64,000 bases of DNA from positions 1 to 64,000 of IMG/VR virus record IMGVR_UViG_3300032030_000057. One strand, 5' to 3'. This document shows, in pieces, positions 1,804 to 52,715 of this stretch; positions within the stretch are counted from its first letter, which is position 1; each line of letters starts with the position of its first letter. The translations under genes were made by a program, and so were the position numbers. A model generated the notes under the pieces. That model searched no databases, had not been told where the DNA came from, and was given only the letters and a program-made list of their open reading frames with translations. Source of the stretch: a virus (lineage: Duplodnaviria; Caudoviricetes).

Positions 1804-4800
1804 ATGCCAGACCCCACAGTAGTAGTAGCCCGTCTTGACAATAAAGAGTTGAAGGAATCAATCAACCAAATGGTTATTGACTTCGAAAACGGGCTGAATC
1901 GGATGAAGCAATCGGCAGATACAGCCGTTGCAGACCTTCAGAAGACGTTGAAGAAACTTAGCGATACAAAGGTAGACTCCAGCGGTTCAGCCGACGGAGG
2001 AAGCTCTAGACGCAAGAAATCCAACGACGAGGAAACGCAGTCAATCAAGAGCAAGACTGCTGCTGCCAAGGAGTTTACAGCTACACTTGACCAGCAGGCT
2101 CAGGCCGTGCAGAAGGCTATGGGTGGCTCAAGAAATGCTGACATTATTCAAACAATGCAGACACAACTTGAGTTAATGTTATCTCGCTTACGAGAGGCTC
2201 GTAGCCAATATTCTTCTTTTATAGAACTTGCTGCTCATGCAACCACTACTGGTGACAAGGGTCTCTTTCAGTTTGCCACAGAAAACGTTCATCGATACGA
2301 ACAAGAAGTCCGTAATCTTATTCCACAAATAAGGGGGTTGAGAAACGGTATTACCCAAATGGGTGATGTTCTTGCTCCTCAGGGACATGCTTTTGAAAAC
2401 TATGTAAAAAGCCTTATGCAAGCAAACCCAGAACTTGCCCTTATGAACAAGTTGTTTAAGACTGGGAATTGGGTATGGAGTGAGAGAAATGCTGTTTTAA
2501 CCCAAGCTACAGCTAATACGCAAAAGAATACGGCAGAAATAGAGAAACAAACTGCTGCTGAACAAAAGTATTCTGAGGCTGTACAAAATGCAGCACAAGC
2601 ACTTAGGTCTCAGTTTAATACTGGAAAAGCATCTTATATTGATGTAGGCGGAAAGGCAATATATGCTGACGAAAGCAAAGCTTCTATAGAGTACCAAATT
2701 AACCAACTTGTAAAAGAACGAGGGAAAGATTTTAACCTTCAACATGCAGTAGCACAAGCTATAGAACAGGATGAAAATCGCATAAGCGAAAATCTTCGTA
2801 AGCAAGTTGATGCTGAAAAACAAATAAATGAAGAAAAAACCAAAAGAGTAAAAACTTTTACTGTTGAGCTAGAATCTCTGAATACACTTAACGAAAAAGC
2901 AAAAAAGTTAAGGAGTATGCTTGCTGATATGACAAACACACAGTTGAGAGACCCAAAAAACGGTGGAGCACTTTCAAGAAGATTGAGAGAGATTGAAGCA
3001 CAAATAAAAAAAGTAAAACAAGAAATAGACCGCCCAACAAAAGAAGAAGTTTTTGGAATTAAACCAAAGACGCTTGACGACATGGCAAACAAGCTTCGAA
3101 TGCTTCAGTCATATAAGATGGGCATAAACCTAAACGCACCGCAAGCAGCAAACGAAATAAAACAGGTAGACGATGCTATCAACCGTCTAAAGAAGGACAT
3201 GGATAAATACATGTCAACAGGACGTGAGGTAAATTCTATGAACAATGCTCTTGCTCGTTCATTCAACTACATGAAGAATCGTCTGGCATTCTACTTTACT
3301 GTCGGTGCTTCTACACAGTTTGTAAAGAACCTGATTGATATCAGGTCTCAGTACGAGATGAACGAGCGTGCGCTTGGTATTCTTATCAATAGCGCAGAAA
3401 GAGGCTCTCAGATTTTCAAAGAGTTATCTAACATGGCTCTTGTGTCTCCATATACGCTTATCGAGCTGTCTACAGCAGCTAAACAACTTGTTGCTTACGA
3501 TATTGCTGCAAGGGATGTGGTTGACACAACACGTCGTTTGGCTGACATGACTGCTGCTGTTGGTATTCCTATTGAGCGTCTTACATACGCTCTGGGACAA
3601 ATAAAAGCATACGGGTATCTTAACGCACGCGATGCACGTATGTTCTCAAACGCAGGTATTCCTTTGGTCAAGGAGCTTGCAGACTATTATTCTCAGCTTG
3701 AAGGAAGAATGGTAAGTGTGGCAGATGTTTACGACAGGATTAAGAAAAAAGCTATTGACTATAATTCTGTCATGAATGTCATATCAAAAATGACCGACGA
3801 GGGCGGTAGGTTTTTTGACTTCCAAGCAAAGATGGCAGACACGTTAAAAGTAAAACTTGCCAATCTTACTCTTGCATGGAACAACATGCTTAACGATATA
3901 GGAAAAAGCGAACAGGGATTGTTAACTTGGACTATAGGAGCATTAAAAGAGGTTTTTCTTCAGTGGAAAAACATTAATAGAGTTGTTGAAGATTTGATAA
4001 TAATTTTTGGAGTTTTAAAATCTGTTCAGCTTGTTTACTACGGTGTTATGCTAGGAACCAGCAAAGCTATAACCGCACAAGCTGTACTTGGTAAAAAATT
4101 AACGTCAATTCTTAAAACACTTGGTGGTACAATGAACCAAGTTCTTACATCTGGAGCAACTTGGTGGGGTCTTCTTGGTGCTGCTGCAATTGGTGCTGCA
4201 ATATCAATTGTGCGCGGAAATGAAGCAATGAAAGAATTTAATAAATCTATAAGAGAAGACGCAAAAAACACATACAATGATGTTACAAAATTCTTAGAAC
4301 AATATAAAGAGCTAAAAAACAGCTTATATGATGTAGAAAAAAAGACAAGGTTTGTTCCTTATTCAGATGGATATGAAAAAGAAGAATCTTACGATGTTCT
4401 TGTTGGAAAAGACATAAAAAAAGAAGATGCTTTAAAAGCTTGGGCTGCTATACGTGAACAAATCGAACTTTCATCTCAAGCTAGCTCAGATTTTATAGGG
4501 AAACTCTTGTCAATAGAAAATACAAGCGAGCGTGTTCGTCAAGGATTTAAGGTTCTAGAAGATATACAAACTGTAACAGCAGCATTAAATGAGCTTGGTG
4601 ATGACGGAATTAAGGTGTCTCGCGAATGGTCAGAATGGTGGAATTTATGGACGTTACCTGACGGTGTTATAGGCAACCTGAAGGATGCTCATTTGTGGAT
4701 TTCAAAGATAACGGACGAGTTTGGTTCTTTGGAAAATGCAAGGAAAGTTGCCGCAACATCAACAACAGAAGAAGGCCTTCCCAATTTGTTCCAAAAAAGA

Positions 4801-7800
4801 GCAGATGATTATATAAAGAATTATGAAAACGAACTTGAGAAATTCAGGAAAGACCTTTCTGAAACCACACAATCTGTCATTAATTTTATAGAATTAAAAG
4901 GTTGGAATGGCGACACTAACAAGATAGAGGAAGCTTTCAGTAGAGTTTTTAAAAATCTTGCTGCATCCAATAATTTGTCTCCAAAGGAGTTAATGACAAT
5001 GAGACTGGAGTCTGCACAAGCTGAGTATGATGCTCTTGAAAAAGCATTGGAAAGCCATATTGTTGACGAAAACGCAGCACTTGAAAAAGCCAGAGACGAT
5101 AACGAAAAGGCTGATATTGAGAGTAGGCTTAAGGTTTATCAGGACGACTTGTCGTTTCTGAAGGACAATACGGCCCAAAGTAGGATATACTGGGAAGATT
5201 TTACAAAATGGATGGGTCAACAGCATAAGTCTGAGGTTCAGACAATGTTTAGAAACCAAACTTCTGAACAGATAAAAATGCTTGACTTCTCAAAAGGAGA
5301 GTATAACAAATGGGTTGTTGAGTTAGCACAAAAATACGCTAAAGAACACGGTATGGCGTACGCAGATGTTTATGAACAACTCAAAAACTATATTACAAAC
5401 GCAAACCAATGGTCTATTCGTATTCCTCTTATTATAAGCACTGAGGATAGTAAAACAGCATTACAGACCTTAAAAGATGCAGACACAGCCTATGACACCG
5501 CAGAGGCAGCTATCAATCGTTTGAAGAAACGTCAAAAAGAACTTGTCGATTCTGGTGCAAACAAACTGAAGGAAACAAAAGACCAGACTGACGCTGATAG
5601 AGAGCTTATAATGGTTGAAGATGAACTTGCCGAACATGAAAAGGCACTAGCTGACGCAAAGGCAAAGGGTGGTCACGGCAAGAAGGAGGATGCAAATGCA
5701 CGTAAGGCTCAGAAGCAGACAGAGAGTGACCTTCAGCGAGTCCTGAAAGAAGAAATCCAACTCATCGACAAGGCCCGCTCTTCATACAAGACTCTTACCA
5801 AGGAAGGAGTTGACTCTCAGACCGCGATTGCACAGGCTACAAGTGGATTTGACAAGACTCTGAAAGACATCAACAGTGTCCTGATAAAGAACGGCCTGAA
5901 AGTATTCGACATCACAAAGTATGCTGGTGTCGAGAATCCGCGTGAGATACTTAACCTGCTTGAGGCACAGCTGAACCAACTGATGACTGCTGGTAATGCA
6001 AAACCTGCAGAGATAGAAGCTCTGGAGATTAAGATTCGCGACCTCAAGATTGATGCAGCAACATTCGACCAGAAGAAGTTTGTATCTAGCCTCAACAATG
6101 AGCTTAGCAAGATTAAGGAAGAGTACGAGCTTGCTATAGACTTGGATGCTAACCCAGAGTTAGGAAACGTATTCGCAGACCTTATGGGTATTAGTGAGGA
6201 GCAACTTCAGGACTTGCCACGTAACTTCGACAGCGTCCTCAAGAAGATGCAGGCTAAGATTGATACCATTCTCGGCAGCGAGAAGAAGTTCGACCTTGCA
6301 GCCAACCTCAACAAGAAGGTGTTCGAACAATGGATTGACGCTAACGGTATGTTGCTTGACAGCGACAAAGCAAAGGCCCTTAAGGCCTACGTCGATGCTG
6401 CCAATAAGATTCGTCAGGACGAGACCAAGAAGCAGATTGATGAGTGGAATAAGCTCCTAGAGAAGTACGCGGAGTACGAGTACAAGCGTAAGACTATTAT
6501 GGAGACCGCTGAGCGTGAGCGCAAGATTGCTATTCAGAAGGGAGCCAGTCAGGAGATTATCACTGCTATCAACAACAGGGAGAGGCAGGATTTGGCAAAG
6601 CTGGATTTCGAGGAATTCCAGAAGACTCCAGAGTGGATTGTTGCCACTGGCGACCTTGCTAATATGTCCAAGAGTGCAATTGGTCTCTTGATAAGACAAA
6701 TCGAGGAATACAAGCGTACTGCAAGAGACCTGTCTCCCAAGCAGATTAAGCAGCTCAATAATGCGCTGTCGAAGTTGTATAAAGAACAGAGAAAGAACAA
6801 TCCGTTCAAGGCCATCTCGAACATGCTTCAGGAGGCTAGAGATAGAATGGCAACCTTTGATGAGGATATTAAGAAGGTTCAGAAAGAGATTGACGACCTT
6901 ACAAAGAAAAAGAAAGCAAACATAGTGTATGGCGTTGCTGACGAAGATGTTGACAACGCTTTAAAGAAAGCCATCAAACGTTTCAATGAGTTAAAGAAGG
7001 CTCAAAAAGAAGCTGGAAAGGTTGATGCTTCTGGATGGGTGGCTGCTATTAACGAAACAACCGCAGCAGTTAAAAGTGCGGTTATGGTTTTTGACGACCT
7101 AATAAATGCCATATCTGGAGTAAGCGAGTCTGATATTGGAAAGGCTTTTAGTGTAATAGAAAAAGCTGGTTCTACTGCCGCAATTGGAGCACAGATAGGA
7201 GGTGTTTGGGGTGCTGTTGCAGGAGGTCTTATTGGGGCTGTTTCTGGTTTTATATCTACATTTGGAGACGAATTAAGTGGAAATGCTTCAATAACAAAAT
7301 CTGTCAAGGAATCGGAGAATGCGGTTAAACGTCTAGAGATTGCTTATGTAGACCTACAACGTGCAATAGATAAGGCGTACGGCTCTGAGGTTGTTGGTGC
7401 AAAACAAGCCATGGCAGCAGCAAAGGAAAAAGAATTGGAAGAACTAGAAAAGCAGCTCGAATTAGAACGTTCTAGAGAGTCCAAGAATCGTGATGAGGAT
7501 AAGATTTTAGAGTTAAAGAAAAGTATAAAGGAACTGCGCTATGAGATAAAAGACACTATTGAGGATATTACAAATGACCTCATGGGTACTGACGCTTATA
7601 GTTTTGCAGAAAGACTTGTGTCATCCATGATTGACGCTTTCAAGAAGGGTGAGGACTATATGAAAGTCTTTGAGGAAAGTTTTGATAGTATGGTTGACAA
7701 TATGATTATGAAAGCTATTGTCTCTAGGGTCGTTGGTCTTTATTTGGATAAAATATGGGAATCTGTTGAGGACAATATACAGGCACGAAGTAAAAAAGAA

Positions 7801-8535: not shown

Positions 8536-9198
8536 ATGACAGACATGATTAAAGTACAGACAAAAATGGAGAAAAAAAACAAAGGACGTGGTAAAGATGT
8601 ACCACATTTTAAGAAAAGAAGAATTGTGTGTGGAGTTGGTATAAATGATTCAACATCTTCAACTCGCACAAGTGGCGACAGAGAACCTGCTTATGCGTTA
8701 TGGAAATCAATTTTAGTAAGATGCTATAGATATAACTCAATAAGGCGGCAAACATATTCAGGTTGCTCTGTTTGTGAAGAATGGCTGTCGTATAGTGGTT
8801 TTAAAAGATGGTTTGATGAAAATTTTGTCAATGGATACCATATCGACAAGGATATTCTTATTAGGGGAAACAAAGTTTATTCCCCAGAAACATGCTGTTT
8901 TGTACCACCAGAAATTAACACGCTGCTTGTAAAGTGTAATTCTAAAAGAGGAAACCTTCCTATAGGAGTATCTGCGGCCTCTAAAAACACTCATCATCCG
9001 TATAGAGCCGTTGTCAGAAAAAACGGAAAATATATAATGTTGGGGTATTTTTCAACTCCAGAAGAAGCATTCATGGCATATAAAGATGCGAAGGAACTCC
9101 ACATAAAAGAAATGGCTAAAAAATACTTTAACAGAGGGTTGATAACAGAAAAAGTTTACAATGCGTTAATGAGATGGGAAGTTAAAATAACTGATTAG
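8536..9198 (+). CDS. HNH-type homing endonuclease with C-terminal AP2-like domain (start uncertain: 8536/8545/8566)
   Basis: GVGIND..W..IL.RCY..CEEW..F..WF...HIDKDIL.GNKVYSPETCCFVP.EIN..LPIGV..LGYF.TPEEAF.AY family pattern; the tracked 8443 start lies inside the promoter. Confidence 0.85.
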   Translation: MTDMIKVQTKMEKKNKGRGKDVPHFKKRRIVCGVGINDSTSSTRTSGDREPAYALWKSILVRCYRYNSIRRQTYSGCSVCEEWLSYSGFKRWFDENFVNGYHIDKDILIRGNKVYSPETCCFVPPEINTLLVKCNSKRGNLPIGVSAASKNTHHPYRAVVRKNGKYIMLGYFSTPEEAFMAYKDAKELHIKEMAKKYFNRGLITEKVYNALMRWEVKITD

Positions 9199-11934: not shown

Positions 11935-14034
11935 TCAGAACGGAGGAGCATCCTCACCACTGTACACACCGAACGGAATTTCCTGCTGTCCTTTTTCATA
12001 CACAGTGGTCTCGTTCTGCTCGTTCCAGAAGTCAGTCTGCTCACCACCACCTTCCCATCCATAGTGTATAACCTCGTCAGGCGCATTTTTGAACCGCCTG
12101 CTCTCAATCTCATAGTGAAGACCGACAAGGACGTCACAGACGCCGTACATGCGGTTTTTTGCTATTTCTATGACGTTTCCGTATCCACTATAGCGTTGTA
12201 TCTCTGCCTGACCATAGAATTCAGCTCCTGCCTTAAGGAAATCTTGGTTAACCCTGTGAATTATAAGTGTATTATCTACAACATTCGTAAGGTCTGACGT
12301 TCCGCTGATATCGTTCTTCCTAAGGAATGCCATTGACTTCCTCGGATGGGCCACTAAGATAACGTGAACACCGTTTTTCTTTGCAAATTCCTTAACCTGC
12401 AAAATAAGCTCCTTCTGCTTATTATTCTTATCTCCATCGAGAAGGTCTATATCAAGAGACATAAGGTTGTCAAGAATGAATACCTTTACGCCTGCTGCAA
12501 GCAAATCCTTCATGTCGTGAAGAATCTCTTCCCATGTACTCCCGTATTCGTTATTGAACAGGAAGAACCGACCCCGCAGCCACTCATCAATCCTCTTTCC
12601 TATATTCGACGGAACAAAATACTTCCCGTCTCCAAATTGAGAAGGCTTGAGGAAATTCTTTCCTGCAGCCGCCATCTGAATCCATGCCTTTAGAATCTGT
12701 GGTGGCAACTCACCAGACCACAGGGCCGTCGGCACACCCTGCTCAACAAAGTTCAGAATAAGACTGTTGATGAGCGATGTCTTACCTGCGGCATTACCGC
12801 CAGAAATCAGCGTGACCTCACTTTCAGCAAAGCCGAGGATGAATCTGTCGAGCTCTATTATACCCGTCTTAACCCTAGGAATAGACGACAGGTCAACCTT
12901 CTCGATTTCGTCCATCTGGAGCCACTTTTTACCTAGTTCTGGCAGCTCTTCCTTGATGACATAGCGAGGCTTCTGCTGTCCGTACACGCGAGATTGTGGC
13001 TTATACATGGGTCTGCTATATGCGTCGGGCTCATAGAATAGTCGAAAATCATGCCATGTGCGGTCTTTACAGTGGGAATGCGTGCAGTTGAAAGTCACTT
13101 TCCCGTCTGGGTCTAGAAACAGTGCAGAATCCCATTTTTTCTTGTCGGAATGAGTATCCACCCAAGGGCAGTATTCAAGTGTAAACCGTACACTCTTTCC
13201 TTGCTGCTCCTCCTTGTAAACGATTCCGTGTTCACTAAGCCATGTGCGCAGGTCAAACTGACTCTGACCCTGATAGGGCCTCCTGTTCGGAACAACCTTC
13301 GGCTCTTCCTTTGGTAGAAGGTCTGCAAGTTCCTTGAATTTTGATAGAGGTGTAGGTACTATATTCTCTGGTACATAAACAATTTCCGACATGCGCCAAG
13401 GTCTGTCAGTAATGTTTGCACCCTTTTTTGCGACTGTGCCGTACAGCTTGCACACCCTTGCTGCATTGAAGTTCTTTTCGTCGAAGTCAACCTTGTCATC
13501 AGTAAACAGAGAGCTCATGTATTTGAAGAAACCCTTTATAATCTCCGTTGTCTCATCGCTTACATCCTCGTCGATATAATATAGGTTATGCCAACCGTTT
13601 CCACTCTTACATATAACTGGGTCGCTAAACCCTTTGCTTCTAAGGAATCTATATACGTCCTGAGCTTTCTTATGAGCAAGCTCGAACTCCTCGTCGCTTG
13701 AGTTCGTGCCGCTTTTTCTTACAGGGTCAAAATCACACAAAACCCAATGCCTGCGAACTATGTCATTGTCGTTTGTGGTTATCTTTGCCTTGATTATCTT
13801 CTCGCATTGTTGTCTTCCGTAACAGGATTCGTCTATCTCGTTCAATACAAAATACAGCTGCTCGTCCTCCATGTCGGCATACGGCTCTATGGAAGAAATG
13901 AGAGAATCAACAGACTTAAAGTAACCGCTATACTGAAAACGTCCGAGTATCCTTACCTCAGTAAAGTTCCCGTCTCCAACAAAGACGTTCCACCATTTGC
14001 GTATAATATCCTTGTCAATCATATCTTCTCCCAA
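11935..14034 (-). CDS. Primase-helicase fusion: AEP-like primase, Zn-binding linker, SF4 (DnaB-like) helicase
   Basis: LCDFDP and SGNGWH AEP motifs; CPW..H..C.H.HC; Walker A GGNAAGKT; ILDNL; VAHPRK; DISGT; KNR. Confidence 0.85.
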   Translation of the reverse strand: MGEDMIDKDIIRKWWNVFVGDGNFTEVRILGRFQYSGYFKSVDSLISSIEPYADMEDEQLYFVLNEIDESCYGRQQCEKIIKAKITTNDNDIVRRHWVLCDFDPVRKSGTNSSDEEFELAHKKAQDVYRFLRSKGFSDPVICKSGNGWHNLYYIDEDVSDETTEIIKGFFKYMSSLFTDDKVDFDEKNFNAARVCKLYGTVAKKGANITDRPWRMSEIVYVPENIVPTPLSKFKELADLLPKEEPKVVPNRRPYQGQSQFDLRTWLSEHGIVYKEEQQGKSVRFTLEYCPWVDTHSDKKKWDSALFLDPDGKVTFNCTHSHCKDRTWHDFRLFYEPDAYSRPMYKPQSRVYGQQKPRYVIKEELPELGKKWLQMDEIEKVDLSSIPRVKTGIIELDRFILGFAESEVTLISGGNAAGKTSLINSLILNFVEQGVPTALWSGELPPQILKAWIQMAAAGKNFLKPSQFGDGKYFVPSNIGKRIDEWLRGRFFLFNNEYGSTWEEILHDMKDLLAAGVKVFILDNLMSLDIDLLDGDKNNKQKELILQVKEFAKKNGVHVILVAHPRKSMAFLRKNDISGTSDLTNVVDNTLIIHRVNQDFLKAGAEFYGQAEIQRYSGYGNVIEIAKNRMYGVCDVLVGLHYEIESRRFKNAPDEVIHYGWEGGGEQTDFWNEQNETTVYEKGQQEIPFGVYSGEDAPPF

Positions 14035-14657
14035 GTTTTAGAAGCCTTGTTCCACTGGATTGTGCCTCGTCCGTTGTTGAGTGTCACACGCGCACCGTCA
14101 GGGCGATTATCATCATTATACCCGTCTGGGATATGCTTGCCGTCGAAGAATCCTATGTACATATAGCACTTATGGTATTCCGTCCATGATAGAAGGCCAC
14201 TGGTAGTCGGCGTATATGTCTCAGTGGAAGATTCCCCTGAGGATATTATCATCGGGTCATAGATGATGCTGTTGTCCATAAAGACGACGTTCATAAATGC
14301 CTTGTCGCGAAGATAACGCTCAAAGTCAAGCTGAAAGCGCAGCTCACGGGAAGACACGTATGCCTTGATATGCGGAAGCACCATGCGATACTCCGAATCT
14401 TTGAGCTTATTCCAGTAGCCCTTGGCATTCTTCTTGCTTCCTTTGCGCCTGTATGCCTTCCAGCATTCCTCAAATAACTCATTATTCTTGTCGTTTGGTG
14501 TGCGAAGGTAATCCACAATCTTGGCCATGTCATCGAAGCTGATGAAATCATTAATGTAGATTCCGTCATCGTCATTCTGGATAACACTTATACTACTATC
14601 TTCAAGTATAGACAGAATGTGGTCTCTTTGTTCTTCCGTTTTCGCTAATAGTTTCAT
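14019..14657 (-). CDS. Putative replication initiator/helicase-loader-like protein
   Basis: FEECWKAYRRKGSKKNAKGYWNKL...FERYL motif typical of phage replisome-organiser C-domains; overlaps the primase start; likely start 14657. Confidence 0.45.
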   Translation of the reverse strand: MKLLAKTEEQRDHILSILEDSSISVIQNDDDGIYINDFISFDDMAKIVDYLRTPNDKNNELFEECWKAYRRKGSKKNAKGYWNKLKDSEYRMVLPHIKAYVSSRELRFQLDFERYLRDKAFMNVVFMDNSIIYDPMIISSGESSTETYTPTTSGLLSWTEYHKCYMYIGFFDGKHIPDGYNDDNRPDGARVTLNNGRGTIQWNKASKTWEKI

Positions 14658-14818
14658 AATCGTGGTTGTTTTAGAAGCCGAATGGACGGTTCTACTCAAG
14701 GCAACCACTCCTCTTTCAAACCGCCCATTTTGGCAAAATTGTAATTACATTTATCTTTATCGTCCGTGCGCCTGATGTGGTTGACAACGCACTACGGAAC
14801 CTTCACTCTGCAAAGGTA
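14657..14818 (-). promoter_or_regulatory. SigmaA promoter plus two-hairpin kissing-loop leader
   Basis: TACCTTTG -7 box; loops CAACCAC and GTGGTTG; second CAACCAC just before the ATG. Confidence 0.6.
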
Positions 14819-14846
14819 GAAAATTTGTTTTTAACTTCCAAAGAAA

Positions 14847-15350
14847 TTAACCATTATTAATAAATTCTTTATGTTGGTTATATAAATAATCGAACATGAT
14901 TTCTGTCTGACTAGCAGCCCATTCCAATGATTTATTAGAAGTAAACTCGCCTCCTCTTTCAAGAATCTTCATGAAAATTTCTCCACGAAGTTTCATCCAG
15001 TACATTTTTTCATCAATCACAGCCTGATGGTCTGCGATAGACTTCGTATCCATAGCCGCAAGCATGTCGCGCAGTTGGTTCTGTGTACGCTCATGCTCCT
15101 CTTCAGACTTTCTCATATGCTCATTCCAGTCATTCATAAATGAAGGTTCTTCTTGAACCTGAGTGAAGTCAAGGTCTGATATACCGTACTTGTTTCCTTT
15201 TTCGTCCAAGAATACTTCACTAAACGGCTCAGATTGTCTCAGTACAACATCAAACTCTCCGTTTTGACTAACATACTTGCATTTAATCCATCTATAAGTC
15301 TCTTCCATAATAATTGTATTATTTACACCAATAATCCTTAAACTATCCAT
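14847..15350 (-). CDS. Hypothetical protein
   Basis: 167-aa ORF in the leftward operon. Confidence 0.6.
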   Translation of the reverse strand: MDSLRIIGVNNTIIMEETYRWIKCKYVSQNGEFDVVLRQSEPFSEVFLDEKGNKYGISDLDFTQVQEEPSFMNDWNEHMRKSEEEHERTQNQLRDMLAAMDTKSIADHQAVIDEKMYWMKLRGEIFMKILERGGEFTSNKSLEWAASQTEIMFDYLYNQHKEFINNG

Positions 15351-19617: not shown

Positions 19618-19737
19618 TGTTGCAGCTCGACTATGCGAGGGTAAATAGGCGTTAGGCATAGTGCGTTATTAGGGCATGGTGTATCCTTTTGGGTGCATTA
19701 TGCCCTTTTAGGTCGTATTAATCTAAAAGCAGGAATT

Positions 19738-44054: not shown

Positions 44055-44242
44055 TTTGCATATATAAAATATTATTCCGAATTTTGCAGCGTGAAACAAG
44101 GTGGCGTACTTGTGTAACGGACATACGAATTATCATTTGAAGGCTCAAGCCAGACAATATAAAAACGATTTCCAACAGAAGTGACGCCACACCGAAGTTG
44201 GATTTCTTGTTTTATAAGGTCTGGCTTTTCTTGTTTTCACTC
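44055..44242 (+). promoter_or_regulatory. Near-consensus promoter plus kissing-loop leader/sRNA
   Basis: TTTG-N20-GAATTTTG; loops GTGGCGT and ACGCCAC; long hairpin 44148-44226 followed by a T-run. Confidence 0.55.
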
Positions 44243-44642
44243 GCTAAGACAATAGCAAGAAACATGGTGCAAGTCATACGATATTGTGAGTCAAAGCCGT
44301 CAACGCAGGGATTATCGGGGTCATCTTACGTTTACCCTGTAGGACGAAAAGAACCGCCAAAAGGAACATGGGATATATGCACGAATGGCGGACGCTGATG
44401 GAATAAGGATGCGTGTGCGCAAGTGGAAATTTGTAAAGCCTGACACCCGACGTTTGAACCACCAACCGAGGGGCGATTGAAAAAGCCGATTCCCTAATGC
44501 GGAGTTTCAAGAGCAAAATCATCCAATTCTCACCGCTGAATTAATTTTCTCGGTGGGTAAGGGGATGATTTGCGAAATCCCCTACACTTAAACCCTTTGC
44601 GGTTAATGTTTTAGTATGATAATAATTTAAACAATATAATAT

Positions 44643-51837: not shown

Positions 51838-51926
51838 TATTAAAAACTGTGTAAAATGCATAGAAAACAAATAGGCTCGCTTCCGACGTGGTTGCAAGCC
51901 TATTATGAAAGTTTAACCCTTCATCC

Positions 51927-52060
51927 TTTGCTTCTACAAAAATTATTCGTAACTTTGCAAAAGAAATAAACGCTTATCCACCACTAAGCGAATATATAAG
52001 ACTAAATGGATTTGTCTCGTTAGATGCGTGGTGGCTCTTTCGGGGCATTTCCGTTTTTAT
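51927..52060 (+). promoter_or_regulatory. SigmaA promoter plus kissing-loop leader of the HNH gene
   Basis: TTTG-N19-TAACTTTG; loops CCACCAC and GTGGTGG. Confidence 0.6.
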
Positions 52061-52064
52061 ATTT

Positions 52065-52715
52065 ATGGAAGAAATTTGGAAAGACATTGAAGGGTTTGAG
52101 AATGATTACATGGTTTCGTCTTATGGGAGAATTATGATGAAAGAACATAGTTGTTTAATGCCAAATGGAGGGACTAAGGTAATTCCGAATCACATTCTCA
52201 ATACCATAACCACAAAAAATAAATACGTTTGCGTTTCTTTAAAAAAAAGAACGTATTATGTTCACAGACTTGTCGCAAAAGCGTTTCCAGAAATATGCGG
52301 GTTATGGTTCGATGATTGCCAAGTTGACCATATAAACACAATAAGAAACGATAATATGGCAACAAACCTTCGTGTTGTGTCAGCACACGAGAATAGTACA
52401 AATCCCATAACCATCAAACATCAAATGGAAGCAAAGTTAGGCAAGAAGATGCCGATTGGTTTTAGAGAATTGCAAAGACAAATACATTTAGGTAATAATC
52501 TTTCTTGTCAAACAAAAGAGAAAATAAGAAATTCTTTACTGAATAATCCCCTTATAAGTAAAAGAGTGTTGCAATTGGATTTAGATGGTAAAGTGATAAA
52601 AGAGTGGGCAAGCAGCAAGGAAGCCGAAAGACACGGTTTTCATCACAGCAGTATAAATTTGTGTTGCAAAGGAATTTATAAACAACACAAAGGTTTTATT
52701 TGGAAATATTTATAA
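52065..52715 (+). CDS. NUMOD4-HNH-NUMOD3-NUMOD1 homing endonuclease
   Basis: EIWKDIEGF..Y.VSSYGR; VHRLVA.AF; VDHINTIRNDN.A.NL; KRVLQLDLDG..W.S..EA..GFIWKY. Confidence 0.9.
   Translation: MEEIWKDIEGFENDYMVSSYGRIMMKEHSCLMPNGGTKVIPNHILNTITTKNKYVCVSLKKRTYYVHRLVAKAFPEICGLWFDDCQVDHINTIRNDNMATNLRVVSAHENSTNPITIKHQMEAKLGKKMPIGFRELQRQIHLGNNLSCQTKEKIRNSLLNNPLISKRVLQLDLDGKVIKEWASSKEAERHGFHHSSINLCCKGIYKQHKGFIWKYL

Follow-up and report, generated by a model that had tools for sequence, protein, structure and literature searches.

We analysed a candidate regulatory leader ahead of the replication genes on the minus strand of a 64,000-nucleotide (nt) stretch of phage DNA, hereafter the window, which covers positions 1–64,000 of IMGVR_UViG_3300032030_000057, a 79.5-kb IMG/VR phage record rated complete. 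An upstream open reading frame (ORF) on the minus strand ends at 14847 and is followed by a promoter (14811–14842), in which the ‒33 element TTTG (14842–14839) and the ‒7 element TACCTTTG (14818–14811) are separated by a gap of 20 nt. A promoter ahead of this leader had been proposed in an earlier note made from the same sequence; direct reading agrees, and we assign it to the Bacteroidetes TTTG/TAnnTTTG type. In a motif scan of both strands, the sole TAnnTTTG between 13.8 and 17.5 kb was that of the leader promoter. The plus strand between 13.8 and 18.5 kb contained no TAnnTTTG, and thus no countertranscript promoter motif, on the basis of motif scanning rather than transcription data.

The first gene downstream of the leader (14019–14657, minus strand) encodes a replication-initiator-like protein of 212 amino acids (aa), with weak matches to phrog_270 and phrog_9327, and starts at the ATG at 14657–14655. 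The N-termini of homologues align from this ATG. An in-frame GTG at 14708 does not open a conserved coding stretch, as the L053 homologue runs into a stop in that frame. The stop of the initiator gene overlaps the start of a gene for a 699-aa primase/helicase with a DnaB-like C-terminal domain (11935–14034, minus strand; phrog_239 at 5.5e-38; Pfam DnaB_C). By position, the leader lies directly 5′ of both genes, in agreement with the earlier placement ahead of an initiator/primase operon, and the region is best read as the 5′ leader of the replication operon mRNA.

The leader is approximately 135 nt long, and its hairpins and three sequence boxes lie on the minus strand between 14818 and 14655. 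Hairpin 1 (14766–14792) is formed by GTGCGT (14792–14787) and GCGCAC (14771–14766), comprising 6 base pairs (bp) including one U·G, and closes a 15-nt loop (14786–14772) that contains box 1, CAACCAC (14777–14783). The A/U-rich linker between the hairpins contains a perfect 10-nt palindrome, TGTAATTACA (14740–14749). Hairpin 2 (14677–14734) is a rod consisting of a basal GCC/GGC helix (14734–14732 with 14679–14677), an 11-bp stem with one G·U (AATGGGCGGTT at 14729–14719 with AACCGTCCATT at 14691–14681), an internal loop (UGAAA at 14718–14714 and GAGUAG at 14697–14692), an upper helix of 4 bp (14713–14710 with 14701–14698) and an 8-nt apical loop (14709–14702). Box 2, the anti-box GTGGTTG (14702–14708), occupies the apical loop, and box 3, again CAACCAC (14662–14668), is located 4 nt 5′ of the initiator ATG. 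By direct reading and pattern search, the stems of both hairpins and the three boxes proved to be exactly where the earlier note had put them. Its 11-bp stem of hairpin 2 also holds, with the refinement that box 2 is not in a 27-nt loop: covariation uncovers the 4-bp upper helix and leaves box 2 in the 8-nt apical loop. Box 2 is predicted to be unpaired (P ≥ 0.83) in 22 of 27 leaders, and its 7-bp duplex with box 1 or box 3 is estimated at −7.5 to −10.5 kcal/mol.

To place this leader among its relatives, we compared it with leaders of homologous loci. Relatives of the initiator were found in IMG/VR and in metagenome contigs, chiefly from rumen and gut samples, at 48–61% identity, the closest relative being L037 at 95%, and many of them carry a recognisably homologous leader. 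Additional leaders were obtained by scans with two short conserved RNA patterns that were blind to the downstream gene. A covariance model, R1, was then made from 17 leaders (137 positions, 24 base pairs) with the box pairs excluded, so that the alignment was not fitted to them. In the window, R1 detected a single strong copy of 137.3 bits (E 2e-24) extending over all 137 model positions, and the window leader has all features of the family, namely hairpin 1, the hairpin-2 rod with its GAA/AGUA internal loop, and loops that are complementary at 7/7 positions. Across the retrieved loci, R1 detected 27 leaders (the window and 26 more), and the set amounts to 29 with the addition of L229 and L230 from the pattern scan. 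Four near-complete genomes each carry one R1 copy. The sister phage G001 is devoid of the window's own leader at the DNA level and has a different R1 variant instead. The runner-up of R1 in the window (16.8 bits, E 0.42) was at 4002–4165 on the minus strand, coincident with an ACCAAGT/ACTTGGT/ACCAAGT triple that lies antisense within a 2205-aa ORF, and is probably a chance match.

A strict hairpin-2 pattern retrieved only true leaders from IMG/VR, whereas among 185,579 species-representative bacterial and archaeal genomes it gave chance matches only (Natrinema, Acidobacteriota and others) and no prophage copies; the family therefore looks confined to phage contigs. A first search pattern, derived from the word of the L001 type, had yielded mostly chance matches in GC-rich phages and was rejected. 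No match to the region 13.5–15.4 kb was found by blastn among INPHARED phage records. The earlier note had pointed to a covariance model and to Rfam as checks. The former gave homologous leaders from a model of 17, and the latter gave no matching family: with Rfam 15, cmscan of the whole window at gathering thresholds returned a Pistol ribozyme alone, located elsewhere, and a permissive scan of 14600–14900 gave nothing except a chance-level match to the L2 leader (E 1.8). Our search of the full-text literature turned up no account of a comparable leader from phages of Bacteroides or the rumen. Judged by sequence comparison, these leaders form a family of structured RNAs that is conserved among Bacteroidales phages of rumen and gut and has not been described before; it resembles P4 CI and P1 c4 RNAs in its apparent working without being kin to them.

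Among the homologues, the words of the boxes change together. In all 29 leaders, box 1 is a perfect 7/7 complement of box 2, through nine different 7-mers (CAACCAC, CAGTCAC, CAGCTAC, CGGTCAT, CGGTCAC, CTGCTAT, CTGCTAC, CTTCCAC and TGTGCAG). The earlier proposal had been made to depend on covariation between the loops of homologues, and here the loops are complementary in every leader and through every word. In the 27-row alignment, 100% of the cells of the box 1–box 2 helix are paired, and six of its seven pairs change on both sides. Box 3 is perfect in 23 of the 29 leaders, matches at 6/7 in two, is absent from three and is mismatched in one. Among the 27 aligned leaders it is present in 24 (22 perfect and two at 6/7), L230 having a perfect copy besides, and 91.5% of the cells of the box 2–box 3 helix are paired. 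The order box 1–box 2–box 3 is kept in 24 of the 27, with the words changing in concert, and the spacer between box 3 and the ATG is 0–6 nt, mostly 3–4 nt. The idea that the loop of hairpin 2 can pair with either copy is thus supported by its complementarity to box 1 in 29 of 29 leaders and to box 3 in 25 of 29.

The scaffold that presents the boxes covaries as well. For the whole structure in 27 leaders, 96% of cells are paired compared with 75% in column shuffles, and 29 of 31 pairs change on both sides. None of 500 shuffles reached any of the observed measures, and controls in which the partner was slid gave 30–44% of cells paired. All 11 lower and all four upper pairs of hairpin 2 change on both sides, with 97–100% of cells paired, and the upper helix occurs as GTTG/CAAC, AGG/CCT, ACG/CGT, CTG/CAG and TTGG/CCAA. 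The core stem of hairpin 1, UGCG/CGCA, is conserved, and divergent leaders compensate (GTGT/ACAC, TGTGC/GCACA, AGCAT/ATGCT and ACAT/ATGT). The internal loop of hairpin 2 is asymmetric, with UGAAA opposite RAGUA, and its GAA and AGUA are invariant or nearly so; in sequence it resembles the AGUA/GAA consensus of loop-E/sarcin-ricin modules. The linker palindrome remains palindromic through its changes (AGTTATAACT, AGTAATTACT, TTAACGTTAA, GTAATTAC and GTTATAAC) in 17 close leaders, at 8–10 nt, and is lost in the most divergent ones. It is too short-looped for an RNA hairpin and may be a site of RNA dimerisation or a DNA site for a dimeric protein. Between L118 and L116 the scaffolds are 91% identical and the boxes 43% identical, whereas the mean column entropy is equal in boxes and scaffold, and diversifying selection on the boxes is only suggested.

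When the window is judged alone, the leader is no more than chance. CAACCAC occurs in 10 copies against 7.25 expected, and 7-mer triples of the form X/rc(X)/X (rc, reverse complement) within 130 nt are found at 14 places, compared with a mean of about 5 in first-order Markov sequences, both strands being counted, or a chance expectation of about 2–3. Such triples are thus not rare here, and the minimum-energy fold of the single leader sequence is unremarkable (z = −1.0). Short repeats that fell into this order by accident, in intergenic sequence rich in A and T, would account for these values, but this reading is refuted by the comparative data, as 29 homologues covary at levels that none of the 500 shuffles attained, and we give it practically no weight. 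It is therefore the covariation of homologues, and not the weak statistics of the window, that sets the leader beyond chance.

We then considered the strand and the nucleic acid on which the element acts. Many cells of the hairpin-2 pairs are G·U, on the minus strand only; these would be A·C on the other strand, indicating that the leader acts as RNA of the minus strand. TAnnTTTG is found upstream of 23 of the 27 leaders, and in all but one of these it lies 17–30 nt 5′ of hairpin 1. An element working as DNA, with the boxes as operators or iterons of a DNA-binding protein or the hairpins as structures of a single-stranded origin, would suit the position beside an initiator gene, a common place of origins and autoregulatory iterons. 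The boxes are exact repeats without G·U, and the linker palindrome (14749–14740) resembles a dimer-binding site. However, boxes 1 and 2 always lie in the loops of hairpins whose stems covary with strand-specific G·U pairs, the forward/reverse/forward order of the boxes is fixed, box 3 keeps its place by the ATG and the whole element goes with a promoter. We consider action as DNA very improbable, also in view of the initiator genes described next.

All leaders retrieved by RNA pattern alone precede replication-initiator genes. These genes belong to several unrelated N-terminal families (phrog_4707, 6969/270, 11233 and 15768/6451). The word CAACCAC occurs with the short initiator form of the window and with the L028, L075 and L007 types, while one initiator family occurs with different words. 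Word and initiator family thus do not go together, which disfavours iterons read by the initiator. In the phage contig L134, two initiator genes from different families stand in tandem, and each has an R1 leader with a word of its own (5060–5199 with CTGCTAT and 6752–6887 with CAGCTAC, both on the minus strand). Neither of the L134 leaders has an upstream TAnnTTTG, and a common motif, ...GCTACGCYAC..., stands ahead of each. The exception to the adjacency of leader and initiator is the insertion of a homing endonuclease gene between them: in L071 (138–572, plus strand) and in L229 (downstream of the leader at 8586–8618, minus strand), a GIY-YIG-like or HNH endonuclease gene lies exactly between hairpin 2 and the initiator. 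In these two leaders box 3 matches at 6/7 (L071) or is unmatched (L229). The endonuclease genes themselves carry AGGTCAC in the place of box 3, which does not fit the local box 2 in L229.

A similar arrangement was found on a second scaffold. Ten leaders of a sister class (L001 type) precede the same initiator genes in the same promoter context as the R1 leaders, and have the GAAAG motif and the closing helix (A)UGGGCG/CGCCCA(U) in common with them. Their fold differs, however: in place of the single rod they form a three-way junction in which P1 encloses P2 and P3, and hairpin 1 is missing. Full compensatory swaps are seen in P2, such as GTGG/CCAC in place of CAAG/CTTG. In 10 of 10 leaders, through five words, the P3 loop is complementary to 6–9 nt ending 2–7 nt before the ATG, cognate pairs averaging 6.9 nt against 3.8 nt for non-cognate ones, and a second, imperfect copy of the target was placed further upstream, after AAAACG, in one reading and downstream, following a U-rich tract, in another. 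One antisense loop with two sense copies, one of which is at the start codon, is thus repeated on two scaffolds.

Comparison of the leaders establishes the fold, the complementarity of the three boxes, the mutually exclusive partners of box 2 and the position of box 3 at the initiator start. We propose, with a probability of roughly 60%, that the leader is a sense-encoded antisense switch in which box 2 pairs with either box 1 or the start region, the latter pairing repressing translation. Transcription would start a few bases past TAnnTTTG, and hairpin 1 would fold with box 1 in its loop. Hairpin 2 would fold next as a long rod offering box 2 in the 8-nt apical loop, and box 2 would then form the same 7-bp Watson–Crick helix with box 1, as a loop–loop kiss, or with box 3, never with both together. 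Bacteroidetes depend on a start region that is open and A-rich, and not on a Shine–Dalgarno sequence. Pairing of box 2 with box 3 would hide this landing site of the ribosome and block loading of the 30S subunit on the open, A-rich start region, so that the initiator would be shut off and, via coupling or polarity, the overlapping primase/helicase also. Box 1 would serve as a built-in competitor that keeps box 2 occupied and the gene on. The choice between the two pairings could be made in cis, or leader fragments that accumulate could tip it in trans, in the manner of P4 CI and P1 c4; in the trans case, the 7-mer word would define a specificity group for incompatibility or immunity. Repression, the competitor role of box 1, action in trans and processing to an RNA of ~70 nt are all features that we infer from the arrangement of the boxes. 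The leader family most likely controls the timing of replication-protein synthesis.

Several points weigh against this switch. Three leaders (L006, L096 and L069) are without any box 3 and yet keep the kiss of box 1 with box 2, which implies a separate function for the kiss. As close relatives are numerous among the 29 leaders, the independent events are approximately eight word switches, each of which hit all boxes present. The unremarkable energy of the single-sequence fold counts here as well. From position, the direction of control can only be guessed. The spacer between hairpin 2 and box 3 is only about 8–15 nt, compared with a rod about 20 layers tall, and pairing in cis may be strained. 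The box helices are Watson–Crick only, without G·U, so that the boxes by themselves do not tell RNA from DNA. Finally, hairpin 2 of the window is not followed by a canonical terminator, and hence there is no clear sign of a discrete small RNA; in relatives, U-rich tracts of 2–7 nt lie 3′ of hairpin 2.

The retention of the kiss in leaders lacking box 3 raises an alternative, in which the kiss alone is essential, giving a compact fold for a protein or RNase (in processing, stability or antitermination), and box 3 is a minor add-on. In its favour, the kiss is present in 29 of 29 leaders whereas box 3 is missing from three and mismatched in one, the loop-E-like internal loop resembles a docking site for a protein or for tertiary contacts, and the leader of L037 can belong to a processed transcript, as a tRNA-Lys gene ends 12 nt before its hairpin 1. 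On the other hand, box 3 follows every word change in 23 leaders, through at least seven words and at a fixed distance from the ATG, and the estimated chance of a 7-mer match in a stretch of ~20 nt is about 1e-3 per leader. Such tracking is hard to explain other than by selection on box 3. The sister class, moreover, keeps the complementarity of loop and start region without hairpin 1. We regard a role of the kiss alone as rather improbable. In L037, the tRNA-Lys(UUU) gene (1279–1351 of L037, plus strand) replaces the promoter, the leader itself being at 1364–1500, and this leader would be released by tRNA processing.

The proposed switch can be compared with known systems. In P4, the CI RNA silences the replication genes by pairing with seqA and seqC of the transcript to which it belongs (PMC4825925). 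It has three likenesses to the R1 leader: the antisense seqB is flanked by an upstream and a downstream sense target, all encoded by one strand and within a single transcript; the genes controlled are those for replication of the phage itself (alpha, a primase-helicase, in P4, and here by position only); and specificity resides in short complementary words (PMC4825925). The two differ in that no homology of sequence or structure is present, the hosts being Enterobacteria for P4 and Bacteroidota here, in that the upstream target of the R1 leader sits in a hairpin loop as a kiss, and in that its downstream target lies right beside the initiator's own start codon. P4 CI, for its part, works by premature transcription termination and RNase P processing. 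P4 differs also as a phage, since neither a tyrosine integrase nor a lysogeny module was found in the 79.5-kb record of the window's phage.

In the c4 RNAs of P1 and P7, loops pair at the ribosome-binding site, and differences in the words give heteroimmunity (PMC12197685). Like the R1 leader, c4 is sense-encoded in the leader of the operon that it controls, and its loops pair with complementary words (PMC12197685), but it has two loops (a′ and b′) and controls an antirepressor rather than replication. The short and read-through forms of IsrK of Gifsy-1, transcribed from one promoter, can interact (PMC4825925); IsrK differs in activating rather than repressing. The covariance model of the Rfam C4 antisense RNA family (P1/P7 c4, P4 CI and IsrK) does not match the window. 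The likeness to P1 C4 and P4 CI suggested in the earlier note is therefore one of working logic, that is, three-box order and pairing at a start site, and not of family membership.

The IncI1 and IncB plasmids provide a model for control in the opposite direction. There, rep translation is activated by a pseudoknot between a hairpin loop and the start region and is repressed by an antisense RNA that competes for this loop and blocks the pairing (PMC8053102). In the corresponding alternative, the pairing of box 2 with box 3 would be needed for initiator translation to start, and hairpin 1, through box 1, would inhibit it. The geometry is like that of repZ, where the loop of an upstream hairpin pairs with a site adjoining the initiator start, and in IncI1 (ColIb-P9), IncB and IncL/M a competitor for that loop sets the level (PMC8053102); the pairing site of the R1 leader lies likewise beside the start, 0–6 nt from the ATG. 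The same kind of system is controlled, a competitor for the same loop exists, and the three-box data fit activation as well as repression. In the plasmids, however, the competitor is a countertranscript of the opposite strand, whereas box 1 lies on the same RNA, and for the R1 leader the motif scan found no opposite-strand promoter motif. Neither an upstream leader peptide nor translational coupling is present. Around the AUG, no inhibitory hairpin for a pseudoknot to open is evident, and box 3, like the start region, is rich in A and for the most part predicted to be open. The presumed need of Bacteroidetes start sites for an unpaired region also speaks against activation by pairing, which we consider unlikely.

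Repression by the switch, if extended to action in trans, leads to a further suggestion, that the 7-mer word is a programmable address, by which phages sharing a word, or tandem initiator genes of one phage as in L134, would cross-regulate their replication through leader fragments acting in trans and different words would be orthogonal. We offer this tentatively and with some doubt. In the window, no other copy of CAACCAC or GTGGTTG adjoins a start codon, as checked against the ORF list, and therefore no extra trans targets were found there. If true, apparently non-integrating Bacteroidales phages would possess an RNA code of incompatibility or superinfection immunity, in which a single scaffold offers nine or more natural specificities.

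Little has been mapped of how Bacteroidota and their phages regulate genes after transcription, and they are not known to have either initiation led by Shine–Dalgarno sequences or the classical Hfq/ProQ chaperones. The leader would be a clear, comparatively proven RNA–RNA switch that acts at a start site of Bacteroidetes and is linked with the replication of a phage. It shows that the same-transcript antisense logic of P4 and P1 arose, or spread, far outside the enterobacterial phages. The nine or more mutually distinct natural 7-nt specificities make compensatory-mutation tests simple, and if the leaders work as proposed they would be a set of orthogonal riboregulators for engineering gut Bacteroides. 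In phage contigs from rumen and gut, the leader can also serve to mark the replication module.

The earlier note had also reported that the same architecture recurs with different sequences at 44.1 and 52.0 kb. Neither element is matched by R1 or homologous to the leader, and the recurrence is unsupported, because chance alone often places two complementary stretches of 7 nt within 100 nt of each other. The 52.0-kb leader (51950–52064, plus strand) consists of a promoter with TAACTTTG, a CCACCAC hairpin, a hairpin with GUGGUGG at its apex, U5 and an ATG, with no third box. It stands ahead of a gene for a homing endonuclease with NUMOD4 and HNH_3 domains (52065–52715, plus strand), and its fold exceeds that of shuffled sequences (z −3.05). 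No leader of this type was found upstream of nine homologues of the downstream gene, and the region is missing from G001. At 44.1 kb, a small-RNA-like unit of ~150 nt (44088–44250, plus strand) follows a promoter and ends in a long terminator-like hairpin and a U-rich tract. Its 5′ GUGGCGU is complementary to ACGCCAC in the apical loop of that hairpin (z −3.15). G001, its only relative, has a diverged promoter but a copy that is 100% identical beyond the transcription start, and this identity leaves no covariation from which pairing could be judged. Approximately 400 nt of further non-coding sequence separate this unit from the next gene.

Two other features of the plus strand were observed in the window. 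A hairpin of AAUAGGCU and AGCCUAUU (51874–51911) has a 19-nt loop holding GUGGUUGCA, which is the anti-box word of box 2 plus C; a small hairpin, AUGAAAG..CUUCAU, comes after it. The antisense word might have a second source here, or the occurrence might be due to chance, since the word is not over-represented and the hairpin has no R1 match. The Pistol self-cleaving ribozyme (RF02679) lies at 19625–19717, at the start of the plus-strand early region, and matches the full model at 44.5 bits against a gathering threshold of 34.5 bits.

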